A DNA stretch of 55,002 nt from a virus. Its lineage: Duplodnaviria; Caudoviricetes. The stretch spans positions 1 through 55,002 of the IMG/VR virus record IMGVR_UViG_3300037245_001061, one strand, 5' to 3'. A program made the translations under genes and the position numbers. The notes beneath the pieces were generated by a model. The model was not told the DNA's origin. It saw nothing but the letters and a program-made list of their open reading frames with translations, and did not search any database. Every line of letters begins with the position of its first letter. The first letter of the stretch is position 1. Below, in pieces: positions 31,699 through 38,510 of this stretch.

Positions 31699-31778
31699 CC
31701 TAGAGACAAATTGCGGCACACCATAGCCGCAGGAAACAAACTAAACTTTAACCCGTCAATTTCGTTGGGTTGTTAACT
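31693..31778 (-). repeat. attC-like site 1 (bottom-like strand is +)
   Basis: GCCTAAC...ACAAATTGCGG...CCGTCAATTTCGT...GTTAACT. Confidence 0.7.
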
Positions 31779-31788
31779 GTTTTACGGA

Positions 31789-31974
31789 GTGGGATTTATG
31801 AGTAGTGGGCATAGCTGGGAATCACCAGAGCTAGAAAAATGTGAACTGTGTGGGGACAAAGACTACATGGCCGACAAGTTTTGCGGCGGAAACCTTGAAG
31901 TGGCTGAGCAGCGAAAAGAGTGGCTAGAAGGGTTGCGTGGCCAAGAGCATAGCGCCGCATGTGCTAACAGTTAA
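31789..31974 (+). CDS. Cassette hypothetical protein (Cys-containing)
   Basis: Between attC-like sites; ends ACAGTTAA|C. Confidence 0.6.
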   Translation: MGFMSSGHSWESPELEKCELCGDKDYMADKFCGGNLEVAEQRKEWLEGLRGQEHSAACANS

Positions 31975-32056
31975 CGCCTAACCCAAAGCTCAATTGTGAG
32001 CGAATCAACTTGCTTTGACTTTGCGCCAATTAAGACGTTTAGAATGATTGATTTAG

Positions 32057-32521
32057 TTGGTTTATAATGCTGGAGGTAATGACCGAATGACTTGTGGATG
32101 TGAAAATGAAGGCGGTGAGAGCTGCCATGCTGGCGAAGATTGCGCCGTAATTGAGAGAATTAATTCGTCTGTGGATTACGTAGCAGATTTAGAGAAGAAG
32201 ATGGTCTCCGAGGGGTTTAGGGTGCCGGGGAAGGACTTGAAAGACCAAGATGTATGCAGAGAACTACTGCGGGTAGTCGCTGCCTTCGCGCAGAGCGTCC
32301 CTTTGAATGATTGGTTAGCTGTGGAGGCTGAGATTATGACAGGACTACAGGAAGCAATGGACTTACTCTGTGAGGCTATGAGAGAAGAACGAAAACGGAT
32401 AAGCGAAGAACTTTATGAGATGCAAGGCACTGTGAGCCAGTTTGCAACATCAAAAGAATGTATTGCTTATAACCGAGCACTACGTGAGGCCGCAGAGAAA
32501 ATAATTGCTGGGGACAGCTAA
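32057..32521 (+). CDS. Chimeric ORF; real cassette gene probably 32336-32521
   Basis: Internal attC right half plus GGAGG RBS (32292-32334) precede ATG 32336. Confidence 0.45.
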   Translation: MVYNAGGNDRMTCGCENEGGESCHAGEDCAVIERINSSVDYVADLEKKMVSEGFRVPGKDLKDQDVCRELLRVVAAFAQSVPLNDWLAVEAEIMTGLQEAMDLLCEAMREERKRISEELYEMQGTVSQFATSKECIAYNRALREAAEKIIAGDS

Positions 32522-32576
32522 CCATTAGGTAATTTGACGTAGCGAAGCGGAGGTCATTTTGATTAATTTGTTAAGT
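32516..32576 (-). repeat. attC-like site 2
   Basis: AGCTAAC...GCGAAGC apex...GTTAAGT, 61 bp. Confidence 0.75.
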
Positions 32577-32771
32577 CTTTTGGGTCTAAAAAAGAAAGAG
32601 AAGCCCCCAAAGTGGAGACTGGTGCCAGATGAGGATGGTACATATACATTAGAGAAATGGGATGACTTAGTGGGCTATCTCTGTGAAACAGTAAGAGTAA
32701 CGCCAGAAGAGGCTGACAAACAAATTGAGAGGTTAGAGGGAAAAATCCTCTACTACAGAGAAGACAGCTAA
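32559..32771 (+). CDS. Cassette hypothetical protein (TTG start inside attC)
   Basis: GGAGG at 32549 and TTG at 32559 lie within site 2. Confidence 0.55.
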   Translation: MINLLSLLGLKKKEKPPKWRLVPDEDGTYTLEKWDDLVGYLCETVRVTPEEADKQIERLEGKILYYREDS

Positions 32772-32828
32772 CCGTTAGTTAATTTGTGAGGAATGAAATG
32801 ACGAATCAATTTGAACGACTTGTTATGC
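32766..32828 (-). repeat. attC-like site 3
   Basis: AGCTAAC..GTTAATTTG...CAATTTGAAC..GTTATGC; extra G on 3' arm. Confidence 0.8.
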
Positions 32829-33160
32829 GCCTGCTTCAAGTCACCGCTAAACATGATGACTACGCCCTATGGTGGAGGACTGACGGAGAATACGCGCCAG
32901 TTACATTCTTCATAAACTGCGACGACCTTTTCTTTTGGGCCTGTGCTGATTGTGAGGCGGTTACTGAAGAGAATATTTCAAACCTTGAGCAAGCTTATGA
33001 GGATGCAAAAGGTTGCTATGAGTATGGCTCTTGCTACGCACAATTATTGTTTTGCTGTCGGCAAAGAGGCATGAGGCCGCAACAGCCCTATTATAAAGAG
33101 CTGCCTGAACAAATGTGGGGCCTGTTCAACAAGTGTGGGCCAGAGAGAACTGACGCATAA
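32798..33160 (+). CDS. Cassette hypothetical protein (start inside attC)
   Basis: GAGGA RBS and ATG within site 3; C.D.F.WACAD.E and RGMRPQ..YY motifs recur in phage proteins. Confidence 0.7.
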   Translation: MTNQFERLVMRLLQVTAKHDDYALWWRTDGEYAPVTFFINCDDLFFWACADCEAVTEENISNLEQAYEDAKGCYEYGSCYAQLLFCCRQRGMRPQQPYYKELPEQMWGLFNKCGPERTDA

Positions 33161-33209
33161 CGGTTGCAAACACTGGCGAGCGCAGATAGATGAGTGGAAG
33201 GAATGATTT

Positions 33210-33440
33210 ATGGAATTGTTAAATGTGGAGGACGGTATAATGTGGGAAGATATTAAAGATGCACCTATTGGCACGGAGATGTTTGTCGTAAAGACATTTG
33301 GTGTGAGTAATGGACTTACAGGAGGGCAGACATACACCTCTGACCCTTGGTGTGTCTGGCAGCAAAAAGAAGGGGAGTTCTCAAGGTGGCCGCATAAGTT
33401 CCCGCCTACGCATTTCTTGAGGCTACCAACGAATGGATAG
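33210..33440 (+). CDS. Hypothetical protein (W..I..AP..T...PTH motif family)
   Basis: AAGGA RBS; follows a half attC starting at 33155. Confidence 0.65.
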   Translation: MELLNVEDGIMWEDIKDAPIGTEMFVVKTFGVSNGLTGGQTYTSDPWCVWQQKEGEFSRWPHKFPPTHFLRLPTNG

Positions 33441-33493
33441 GATTATGACGGGTAGCACAAATATACGGCCAGATTGGCGCGGACTTGGGTGAC

Positions 33494-33551
33494 AGTTAAC
33501 CCAGTTATAAGCGCGTTGCTGTAAGCCATCCGCTTGACCGCTTTGTTATAT
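33494..33551 (-). repeat. attC-like site 4
   Basis: AGTTAAC..TAAGCG...CGCTTGA..GTTATAT. Confidence 0.65.
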
Positions 33552-33625
33552 TTTGGAGAGAATTATGATTATTTTTCATGGCACTGCTGACCCAACACCC
33601 ACACAAAACTAAGAGGAATTAAATA

Positions 33626-37013: not shown

Positions 37014-37240
37014 ACATCCGAGACCTCTCCCTAGAGATGGAAGTCTCCTCCAAGGATAACCCCATGGTAACTTACTTCGTGGTATCCATAGGGGAGAGTA
37101 CTTGCACACTAGAGTGGAGGAATACTCTGAAGACTCTTGATGGTGTTGAGTATGTCGATGATGTGTACACTTATGAGGGGATATCCCCTGAGATACTAAG
37201 CCCTGTGGGGAATGAGAGACATGAACGATATGCTGATTAA
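37010..37240 (+). CDS. Hypothetical protein
   Basis: ATGA overlap with upstream gene. Confidence 0.5.
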   Translation: MNIRDLSLEMEVSSKDNPMVTYFVVSIGESTCTLEWRNTLKTLDGVEYVDDVYTYEGISPEILSPVGNERHERYAD

Positions 37241-37469
37241 ATTATTTACTATAGCCGCCAATATTAAGAAAGACGGATGGATAGTGATACCCCCATCCAA
37301 TCGAAAGTACACTGTGACATTGAGGGTGGAGTGGTTTTTAGATAAGAAATATGGATTTGAGCGCAGCTTTACAAGAACAGAGCTTGAGCAGACCAATATA
37401 GACCTTGCTGCAGTGTTTGTAGAAGAAGCTAATCATAATATTGATATGCAACTGAAGCAAAGCGCCTAA
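37212..37469 (+). CDS. Cassette hypothetical protein
   Basis: Ends GCCTAA|C at site 11. Confidence 0.55.
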   Translation: MRDMNDMLIKLFTIAANIKKDGWIVIPPSNRKYTVTLRVEWFLDKKYGFERSFTRTELEQTNIDLAAVFVEEANHNIDMQLKQSA

Positions 37470-37525
37470 CGCCTTAAACAAAAGCCGTAGCGAAGCGAAG
37501 GTCGCTTTGCTTTAAATTGTTATAC
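37464..37525 (-). repeat. attC-like site 11
   Basis: GCCTAAC..AAACAAAAGC..GCGAAGC..GCTTTGCTTT..GTTATAC. Confidence 0.8.
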
Positions 37526-37541
37526 GGCCACTAATTACGGA

Positions 37542-37841
37542 GTGAATGAAATGCTTGGCGAACTGAAAGAAGAGCATAAAACAATAGTTTCCCTTAAAAC
37601 AGAGACATATAAGAGGGGAAACAGTTTTGTGGCGGCCAAAGTGCTGACAACACTAAAAAGAAAGTCGACTGGCTTTGATATTTTAAACGGATCAGTAGCC
37701 GACGAGGTAGGGGATTTGCGGGATATTGAGGGTGTATATCTCTTGCCAGACGGTGAATATGAGCTTGTATATGCAAACCCTAGCCGTGACTGGGAGTCCG
37801 GGGTGTGGGAATTTGAGGGCTATGCACTGAAAGCCGTATAA
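37542..37841 (+). CDS. Cassette hypothetical protein
   Basis: GGAG RBS; DG.Y.L.....SRDWESG motif; ends GCCGTATAA. Confidence 0.7.
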   Translation: MNEMLGELKEEHKTIVSLKTETYKRGNSFVAAKVLTTLKRKSTGFDILNGSVADEVGDLRDIEGVYLLPDGEYELVYANPSRDWESGVWEFEGYALKAV

Positions 37842-37889
37842 TGCTGGAATTAATAAGCCTGAAAGGTCTTTTTCAATGATTTGTTATGT
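37836..37889 (-). repeat. attC-like site 12
   Basis: GTATAATGCTGGAATTAA..CCTGAAAGG..TTCAATGATTTGTTATGT. Confidence 0.75.
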
Positions 37890-37913
37890 GGGGATTTGAA
37901 ACAATGGTGATTT

Positions 37914-38156
37914 ATGATTGATGATGAAGATTTAGAAAAGCTGATACAAGAGAATAAAGACCAAGACATGCACTTTGTGGAGTACTTTAAGCATAAGTTC
38001 ACGTACCGCTTCACTGGAGTTGACGGTGTTAACTACTCTATCTGGTGCGGCGATACAGAAGGAGATATTTACCGTGATGGTTGGAGTGCAACTGAAAAGG
38101 TTGGCTGCTTAAGGGTGAATGGGTGCGTCCATTTTGCCTTGGCGAAAGACACATAA
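37914..38156 (+). CDS. Cassette hypothetical protein
   Basis: Ends CACATAA|C. Confidence 0.65.
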   Translation: MIDDEDLEKLIQENKDQDMHFVEYFKHKFTYRFTGVDGVNYSIWCGDTEGDIYRDGWSATEKVGCLRVNGCVHFALAKDT

Positions 38157-38205
38157 CGCTTGAATTAACGGGCGCGAGAGCGTCCCTTTGAATGATTGGT
38201 TAGCT
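38151..38205 (-). repeat. attC-like site 13 (clearest example)
   Basis: ACATAACGCTTGAATTAACGGGCGC-GAGA-GCGTCCCTTTGAATGATTGGTTAGCT; unpaired T and G on 3' arm. Confidence 0.9.
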
Positions 38206-38217
38206 GTGGAGGCTGAG

Positions 38218-38454
38218 ATGAGGACTATTTCTAGTAGTAACGGGGTGACCCTGGTGTTCCCTGATGACGAACTAGCCAAAGAGTACGCTGATAATTTAGA
38301 ACTACTACACATACAAACGTATAAGAAAATTAGAGATAAGTATGGGGTGTTTGCTGGAAACAATAATAAGTTTGTAGAAAGCAGGGAGAACTTGAGCGCG
38401 CACGACCCCCGATTTATGGAGAACCTGTACGACAGATATTACGATACAGAGTAG
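38218..38454 (+). CDS. Cassette hypothetical protein
   Basis: GGAGG RBS, ATG 38218; followed by ACAGCTAA. Confidence 0.6.
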   Translation: MRTISSSNGVTLVFPDDELAKEYADNLELLHIQTYKKIRDKYGVFAGNNNKFVESRENLSAHDPRFMENLYDRYYDTE

Positions 38455-38456
38455 AC

Positions 38457-38510
38457 AGCTAATACCAAGTTCAAGGGCGCACAGCGTCCCTTGTAACTCA
38501 AATGTTATAC
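38457..38510 (-). repeat. attC-like site 14
   Basis: AGCTAAT..GTTCAAGGGCGC-ACA-GCGTCCCTTGTAAC..GTTATAC; two unpaired T on 3' arm. Confidence 0.8.

Follow-up and report, generated by a model that had tools for sequence, protein, structure and literature searches.

The window analysed here, the whole 55,002-bp viral record IMGVR_UViG_3300037245_001061 of IMG/VR, carries an array of small genes separated by short spacers between 31.7 and 38.5 kb. We conclude that this array is probably an integrase-less cluster of attC sites (CALIN), made up of about 15 cassettes whose genes lie on the attC bottom strand and which are subject to integron-type recombination at TAA↓C (the arrow marks the cut). The record is linear and about 60% complete according to CheckV. 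Its minus strand carries terminase, portal, major head protein, tail sheath and tape measure genes between 1 and 26 kb, and a ribonucleotide reductase lies on the plus strand at 40.4–43.1 kb. The array itself is a run of small plus-strand genes in the early region, at 31.4–38.6 kb. Because terminase, portal, sheath and tape measure are encoded and the record comes from IMG/VR, the contig is assigned to an uncultured marine myovirus.

The array carries a footprint of complementary cassette ends. We defined a head as GTTA plus five nucleotides and a tail as five nucleotides plus TAAC or TAAT. By eye, 17 heads and 16 tails were set, which gave 16 own pairs (the head and the tail of one cassette) for scoring. 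GTTA occurs without exception in the array heads (16 of 16), whereas the tails end in TAAC in 14 of 16 cases and in TAAT in the other two. The ten pairs listed in the original prediction are all found in the sequence, with heads at 31772, 32314, 32822, 34108, 34380, 34715, 35055, 37519, 37883 and 38199 and tails that start at 31967, 32514, 33154, 34315, 34667, 34928, 35254, 37833, 38150 and 38455, respectively. We observed two more. Head 33218 matches the tail at 33492-33500 with one mismatch, and head 33545 matches the tail at 35751-35760 with a run of 9. The latter match, together with a repeat of 33566-33600 at 35490-35525, indicates one cassette that is now split in two, the intact form of which is present in the metagenome run X2 (described below).

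The complementarity of own pairs, which the prediction proposed to score against shuffled pairings, is far above chance. At positions 5–10 beyond GTTA/TAAC, 66 of 96 positions are identical in the 16 own pairs, compared with 39.7 ± 4.4 in permutations, and their perfect runs total 116. Neither value was reached in any of 200,000 permutations. A perfect run of 8–10 nt is present in 9 of the 16 pairs. The further claim, that own ends are a better match than the ends of the present hairpins, also holds: the pairs formed in situ (tail of one cassette with the head of the next, n = 16) score as chance, with a sum of 36 that is equalled by 83% of permutations and a longest run of at most 6. The one pair singled out as an exception, 32570/32766, indeed matches only partly (run 4).

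The same pattern is found in bona fide integrons. A run of at least 8 is present in 10 of 11 consecutive cassettes of the Shewanella M16-3 integron and in both cassettes of phage TJE1, and in the chromosomal integron of Vibrio anguillarum (MK672802) each attC has an R' that is complementary to the R'' of the following site. Thus, the footprint in the array is the classical footprint of integron cassettes. It does not by itself reveal which of the two flanking attCs belongs to a gene.

The identity and polarity of the spacers were assessed with a covariance model, R1, trained solely on the top strands of 16 attCs of the Vibrio anguillarum integron; it is our own model and not that of IntegronFinder or HattCI. 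On the whole window, with filters off, R1 gave 12 matches at E ≤ 10, the best at 32764-32830 (E 4.5e-4). Nine of these (E < 3) fall within the array, all on the minus strand and with bounds equal to those of the spacers. When the search was limited to the array, 13 of the 14 short spacers were recovered with exact bounds, again all on the minus strand, and the four plus-strand matches had at most 5.2 bits and other bounds. In Shewanella M16-3, which was outside the training set, all 16 matches at E ≤ 0.1 were on the strand of the cassette open reading frames (ORFs), and in TJE1 all three were on the ORF strand, 7–17 bits above the opposite one. Since R1 tells the strands apart in these controls, the attC top strand in the window lies opposite the genes.

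The layout of the sites points the same way. Passages of Nivina 2016 on attC structure state that cleavage of the bottom strand by the integrase falls between A and C in the AAC of R', that close to L'' this strand has an extrahelical base at position 16 (usually G) and another, a conserved T, at 23/24, separated by a 6-bp stem, that the unpaired central spacer (UCS) measures 5–6 nt per arm and that attCs are 57–141 nt long. In the array, a T at position 23/24 is present in 13 of 16 sites on the plus strand versus 2 of 16 on the minus strand; extrahelicity of the bases at 16 and 23/24 was checked by hand at a few sites. In the site at 38149-38207 (cassette 15), the plus strand reads R'' (7 nt), the spacer GATTG (5 nt), AAT, G16, six bases and T23, and G16 and T23 are extrahelical and 6 nt apart. 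The modelled sites have a 6-nt spacer after TAAC and a 5-nt spacer before GTTA. In the L boxes, 60.7% of cells are paired and both-side changes occur in 6 of 6 pairs, with a covariation score equalled by 1 of 500 shuffles. The array sites align over their full length to the Vibrio model, and 10 of 16 are within the published length range; one interval of 352 nt (by the pairing used) is composite. Each array spacer is a genuine attC site.

Taken together, the polarity of the Vibrio model and the T at 23/24 identify the recombinogenic bottom strand as the plus strand, on which the genes lie, and each tail has the canonical cleavage point at TAA↓C. The array consists of ordinary integron cassettes in which the gene is inverted relative to attC polarity. 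A promoterless ORF on the attC top strand, where it can be expressed from Pc, is a trait of integrons; here, the top strand of every modelled site is opposite the ORFs. Each interval is occupied by plus-strand ORFs, the ORF stop coincides with the TAA of the tail in 13 of 15 cassettes, and 17 of 19 plus-strand starts have a GGAG- or GAGG-type motif in the sequence upstream. The original prediction had proposed that the unit is an attC plus a downstream ORF ending in TAA, with the crossover at AA↓C in the stop codon. The first proposal is supported by the minus-strand model matches, the plus-strand T at 23/24 and the metagenome contigs described below, and the second by the identity of the gene strand as the bottom strand with the canonical AAC cleavage site.

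Every spacer immediately precedes a ribosome-binding site, hairpins of terminator type are over-represented (17 versus 6.0 ± 2.6) and a 454-aa gene upstream of the array resembles clusters automatically named RNA polymerase family. One might thus regard the spacers as regulatory modules (terminator plus promoter), the pairing of which acts in RNA and gene expression and not in DNA recombination. We consider this explanation very unlikely, as sigma-70-like promoters are not enriched (19 versus 18 ± 5), the spacers match a bona fide attC model with exact bounds and strand-specific features, and real integrons have the same footprint. A regulatory role alongside recombination could exist. The closest parallel for a purely regulatory role would be the PeSL elements of T4-type phages, which are reportedly promoter-terminator motifs that act as mobile regulatory cassettes. 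The array resembles them in its small early genes, its location in a hyperplastic phage region, the hairpin motif before each gene and gene-by-gene shuffling between relatives. It differs from that description in that sigma-70-like promoters are not enriched and that each motif, an attC, carries inverted boxes specific to its cassette, a feature not expected from shuffling driven by homology.

Two further candidates were rejected. A sigma-70 promoter in the conserved arm is ruled out by spacing (judged by eye) and the lack of enrichment, and tiny transposons with terminal inverted repeats are ruled out because the repeats differ for every gene.

Cassette-sized differences are visible in marine metagenomes. 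Words of 31 letters from the array are present in 24 marine or marine-sediment runs, of which X1, with 0.95 of the words, is probably the source. We aligned assembled contigs (not reads) of the runs X2, X3, X7 and X8, from four studies, to the array at 90% likeness, a level at which some pieces or joints may derive from other organisms; one side of a joint is short (28 nt). A contig of X2, 263 nt long, equals 34061-34323 exactly, that is, TAAC, attC, gene and TAAC. In X8, the piece 34672-34937 (upstream attC, gene and its own tail) is flanked on both sides by unlike DNA, and another contig has 246 unlike letters followed by 38456-38653. A contig of X3 covers 38166-38466 and continues with 212 unlike letters. 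In these four contigs the upstream attC is retained with the gene and the downstream attC is lost; the reverse is absent among the pieces listed. The prediction had suggested a search of viral metagenomes for the same units with different neighbours; the contigs of the four studies share cassette-sized pieces with the array that end at TAAC.

Among 24 listed loose ends (56 further ends and 93 pieces lie beyond this listing), 7 are within 5 nt of a tail and 4 are 3–5 nt past the G of a head. Of the others, 3 fall within attC cores, another 3 coincide with a start codon and 7 have different locations. The block from 36330 onward is placed behind head 38504 in X2 and X7 (joint 38512->36330, with 5 letters between). 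The bin 33674-34007 had no contig cover in X2, X3, X7 or X8, to which we attach no meaning. As a separate observation, 36330-37470 is a stretch of tightly packed genes without attC inside the array.

A pattern scan of metagenomes returned 21 loci, with true sites in four (L009, L011, L014 and L015) and two partial ones; the others are chance matches. In metagenome contigs, attC cores of identical type (90–98% identity, bounded by TAAC and GTTA) adjoin unrelated genes, which implies that cores and genes have re-associated over time. In chromosomal integrons, too, one attC family serves many genes.

One cassette gene, encoding a DUF7352 protein, allowed a comparison with other viruses. It has homologues of 68–87% identity in four IMG/VR contigs, and its distant homologues (35–41%) are outside any cassette context. 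The window and the four contigs have the same 10-nt boxes in the DUF7352 cassette. For this comparison we used a second model, R2, built from the R1 matches in the window and in metagenome loci, with the four DUF7352-bearing contigs excluded. R2 found 36 sites at E ≤ 0.1 in these contigs, and in an initial look around the DUF7352 gene 31 of 32 matches were on the strand opposite to it. The four contigs hold 29 cassettes. An own run of at least 8 is present in 24 of them, with a sum of 239 versus 165 ± 6.3 in permutations (reached by 0 of 100,000), and in 25 the longest ORF is opposite the attC top strand. One of the four is a 38.6-kb genome, rated 100% complete, of an SU10-like podovirus that encodes SU10-type portal, P22 gp7, DnaB, ERF and YqaJ families.

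By tblastx and blastn, three of these contigs resemble the window in no coding DNA other than the DUF7352 cassette; the fourth shares the cassette and one membrane-protein ORF. In three contigs the block of homology starts at the head, at about 34377, and ends at the tail, at 34676-34694; in the remaining one it begins at 34337, 40 nt into the upstream core.

We then considered which enzyme might move the cassettes. A search with PF00589 on the contig, which is about 60% complete, gave no match at E ≤ 1, and Pfam scans of three sets of ORFs (10, 76 and 23) yielded no recombinase family. The complete 38.6-kb podovirus relative has no PF00589 match at E ≤ 0.1, and Pfam scans of 36 ORFs from six metagenome loci revealed no tyrosine recombinase. 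A complete integron, with intI next to attI and Pc, is not present on the contig. As the contig has no integrase, the array is classified as a CALIN. A tyrosine recombinase was found on one related contig, L043 (G004): at 2-1174 on the minus strand, 580 bp from the first attC, lies a C-terminally truncated protein of 391 aa that points away from the attC top strand, an intI-like position, with two small ORFs of unknown function between. It looks like an ordinary phage integrase: it matches the general phage integrase family phrog_1 (residues 26-390), falls below the Pfam cut-off and has no NCBIfam integron-integrase match. An integron integrase of the host is probably the most economical candidate enzyme.

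The cassettes might instead be moved by something borne by the phage, either an unrecognised or divergent recombinase on the missing 40% of the genome or single-strand annealing at attC arms. The related contigs encode ERF plus YqaJ, or Sak, one related array lies beside the divergent recombinase described above, in the orientation expected of intI, and identical attC cores adjoin unrelated genes on both sides. Annealing of arms, however, leaves the cassette-specific complementarity unexplained, and the sites have IntI-type geometry and are detected by a Vibrio attC model. The L043 recombinase matches a general phage integrase family along most of its length (the residues given above) and the complete podovirus genome has no tyrosine recombinase. 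We therefore regard such a mover as quite unlikely.

In the proposed integron-type mechanism, a cassette would consist of C, the attC core, the R'' box (the head), a ribosome-binding site, the ORF and xxxxxTAA. The stop codon would be the last triplet before the AA↓C cleavage point. A tyrosine recombinase of the integron type, most likely a host IntI encoded off the contig, would cleave the plus strand, in its folded form, at the TAA↓C of two sites. In the excised circle, the head and tail of the same cassette would pair into a perfect R box of 8–10 bp. Each R box in the array is chimeric, and own head and tail thus match better than the hairpin ends. Such exchange may continue at present.

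Besides the negative searches for a recombinase and the family assignment of the L043 protein, several observations weigh against this reading. At position 16 of the plus strand, C is as frequent as the canonical G (G in 6, C in 7, A in 2 and T in 1 of the 16 sites). Five sites are 52–55 nt long, shorter than the published range, and the two TAAT tails carry a non-canonical AAT instead of AAC. Units 2, 6, 11 and 12 are fused, split or composite. Some metagenome breakpoints are directly after GTTA or within cores, so exchange is not restricted to TAA↓C. Additionally, the association of core and gene weakens over longer distances: the DUF7352 gene retains its head and tail in all five contigs, but conservation of the flanking attC cores does not exceed background on either side (mean local scores of 14.0 upstream and 13.5 downstream versus 13.2).

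Some of these points would suit a fossil array, built or captured by integron recombination but now inert and reshuffled only by phage mosaicism (illegitimate and homologous): the lack of an integrase on the contig and in the complete relative, the two AAT boxes, and the fused, split and composite cassettes. Gene-level indels are found in the attC-free block at 36.3–37.5 kb as well, where X2 lacks 36549-36829 (joint 36549->36829) and X7 lacks 36547-37010 (joint 36547->37010). On the other hand, own complementarity of 8–10 nt is kept perfect in 9 of 16 units here, with runs of at least 8 in 24 of 29 units elsewhere. The DUF7352 boxes are identical across five contigs despite 68–87% protein identity, and in near-identical relatives the breakpoints cluster at R boxes (11 of the 24 listed loose ends). 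A fossil array is thus an unlikely explanation.

Integrase-less attC clusters in phages have already been published. The passages of Qi 2023 (PMC9892861; Qi, Rajabal, Ghaly, Tetu, Gillings, Front Microbiol) that we draw on report 17 phage CALINs among 10,705 genomes. They also state that IntI1 recombined five of six tested attCs of virulent phages, bottom strands better than top, and that two of these phage attCs came from Pseudoalteromonas phage PH101, sites of which were recombined. By analogy, this PH101 result, as given in those passages, is the sole support for the view that an integron integrase may recombine the attCs of our array. In PH101/H101 (NC_029094), R1 finds four sites at 75917-77989 on the plus strand, whereas all 11 annotated features are on the minus strand; thus, the published PH101 array is inverted as well. 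The running text of Qi 2023 (PMC9892861), as distinct from its figures and supplements, which may show the inversion, does not mention it, and in a full-text literature search no other title or abstract opening described phage arrays with inverted cassettes.

PH101 is the closest likeness, an attC cluster without integron integrase in a marine myovirus with sites opposite the genes, but R1 finds four sites there, compared with about 16 sites and 15 cassettes here. In TJE1, the three sites delimit canonically oriented cassettes, whereas our array is inverted and in most units the stop codon is the crossover triplet. With the sedentary integrons of Vibrio anguillarum (MK672802) and Shewanella M16-3 (MZ568829), the array shares the R''-UCS-L''...L'-UCS-R' layout, chimeric R boxes and near-identical families of attC cores attached to unrelated genes. 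It differs from them in several respects: it lacks intI, attI and Pc, its genes occupy the bottom and not the top strand, the sites are 52–72 nt long (13 of 16) versus about 130 nt in 15 of 16 Vibrio sites, and the cassette genes have phage relatives. The array is a large phage CALIN, a kind already known, but its variant form, with genes on the bottom strand, the stop codon at the crossover and miniature sites, is not described in the texts that we draw on.

Integrons count as devices of bacteria, and CALINs in phages as small and rare passengers, whereas here the design occupies about 7 kb of a phage early region. The inverted design is found in at least four other viral contigs and in one published cultured phage (PH101). 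This suggests that phages trade accessory genes via bacterial integron machinery. Should host integrases be active on the sites in infected cells, integron recombination would offer phages a general means of exchanging accessory genes, and genes could also move between phages and bacterial arrays. Tentatively, and with some doubt, we propose that marine phages keep a cassette pool of their own, in which genes on the recombinogenic strand of miniature attCs, with the stop codon as crossover, are swapped by host integrase between unrelated phages (the myovirus and the SU10-like podovirus). Inversion would silence the genes in bacterial integrons, and only phage promoters would express them.

The coordinates of the array are given in Table 1.

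Table 1. Cassettes and attC sites of the window (run, perfect own head–tail run in nt; minus, strand of the model match)
Feature	Position	Strand	Parts	Basis
Cassette 1	31699..31974	+	attC 31691-31780 (top strand minus), head GTTAACTGT at 31772, ORF 31798-31974, tail ACAGTTAA↓C	own run 10; R2 31691-31780 minus, E 0.85; Shine-Dalgarno motif and ATG
Cassette 2 (composite)	31975..32521	+	long degenerate site after 31975; ORF 32087-32521; head 32314, tail 32514-32522	run 9
Cassette 3	32522..32771	+	attC 32514-32578, ORF 32559-32771	exception, run only 4; R1 5.8 bits minus, exact bounds; R2 E 0.0099
Cassette 4	32772..33160	+	attC 32764-32830; ORF 32798-33160 begins within attC	best R1 match, E 4.5e-4 minus; run 8
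Cassette 5	33161..33499	+	attC 33153-33226; ORF 33240-33440 stops 60 nt before tail	R1 7.3 bits minus, exact bounds; head/tail one mismatch
Cassette 6 (composite)	33500..34063	+	attC 33492-33553; ORF 33626-34063	R1 E 0.09 minus
Cassette 7	34064..34322	+	attC 34056-34116, ORF 34134-34322	R1 E 0.066 minus; run 9
Cassette 8	34323..34675	+	attC 34315-34388, ORF 34403-34675 (DUF7352, phrog_3848)	run 10
Cassette 9	34676..34935	+	attC 34668-34723 (52 nt), ORF 34741-34935	R1 E 1.6, R2 E 1.7e-6, both minus
Cassette 10	34936..35261	+	long attC 34928-35063 (132 nt), ORF 34974-35261 begins inside	R2 E 0.32 minus; run 9
Cassette 11 (composite)	35262..35759	+	attC 35254-35329, ORFs 35353-35493 and 35490-35759	own run only 6; R1 6.0 bits, R2 E 0.0033, both minus
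Unit 12 (composite)	35760..37469	+	attC 35752-35809, then six ORFs without attC between (35835-37469)	R1 E 0.92 minus
Cassette 13	37470..37841	+	attC 37462-37527, ORF 37551-37841; tail ends TAAT	R1 E 0.0042 minus; run 10
Cassette 14	37842..38156	+	attC 37834-37891, ORF 37914-38156	R1 7.6 bits, R2 E 0.0019, both minus; run 8
Cassette 15	38157..38462	+	attC 38149-38207, ORF 38218-38454; tail ends TAAT	R1 E 0.025 minus; run 9
Terminal attC (first in canonical order)	38455..38512	-		R1 9.9 bits minus, exact bounds; not found by R2 at E ≤ 1
Isolated attC	27784..27854	+ (top strand)	leftward early region; flanking genes minus, hence inverted too	R1 E 0.052

Several units have a more complex structure. 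In the ORF of cassette 2, two genes are fused in frame over a truncated copy of an attC (32276-32322), and blastn of related loci together with reading of the sequence showed that 32287-32329 repeats parts of 38153-38214. A near-repeat of 38176-38220 at 32276-32335 takes in head, ribosome-binding site and start codon. In a contig of X3, 32107 is joined to 36024, a hint that ORF 35835-36308 is related to the first half of the cassette 2 ORF. In cassette 6, head 33545, which matches tail 35760 (run 9), and the fragment 33566-33600 belong with ORF 35490-35759, and a loose end of X2 at 35482 reveals the intact form of this split cassette. ORF 35490-35759 has no relatives in viral contigs. The head and tail of unit 12 are not complementary (run 4). 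Distant homologues of the ORF of cassette 4 (39–51% identity) sit outside cassette context. The terminal attC is followed by a backbone ORF at 38530-38718.

The R2 score of the isolated attC is not independent, because this site belonged to the training set of that model. Near 27520-27566, also in the leftward early region, lies a degenerate attC-like spacer that is likewise inverted relative to minus-strand genes. The N-terminus TNQ(F/M)ERLVMR, shared by ORFs 27562-27828 and 32798-33160, is encoded within an attC arm.

Searches for the array in other genomes gave little. The nearest cultured relatives of the terminase are in Rheinheimera phage Barba19A (50%) and Alteromonas phage PT11-V22 (43%). 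In 45 kb of Barba19A we observed a single weak match to the attC model, and the spacers there are of promoter/terminator type. The motif is absent from the examined neighbourhoods of the three closest ribonucleotide-reductase relatives (L001-L003). Blastn of the array against 50,697 phage records returned no match, a search of viral contigs for two attC arm patterns found none, and blastn of one attC site against plasmids gave chance-level matches only (E = 6). An arm pattern was found at five loci in genomes of bacterial species, including metagenome-assembled genomes of Clostridium, Bacteroidia and Cloacibacterium, which we took, from their titles, as chance.

The 454-aa ORF at 30076-31440 (+), directly upstream of the array, matches phrog_4756 (unknown function). 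It has no Pfam family, no sequence match in PDB and no relatives in viral contigs. Its Atlas neighbours (score 0.97) include a cluster automatically named 'DNA-directed RNA polymerase family protein', and its motifs LDYSSQHP and SYHDSF resemble, by eye, motifs A and C of family-A polymerases or T7-type RNA polymerases. Further upstream, a divergent promoter-like pair (TTGACA, 17 nt, TAGTAT) at 29266-29294 (-) and 29670-29698 (+) marks the switch between leftward and rightward early genes. A tRNA-Arg(CCT) lies nearby at 29163-29239, and tRNA-Met and tRNA-Thr are located at 18306-18465.

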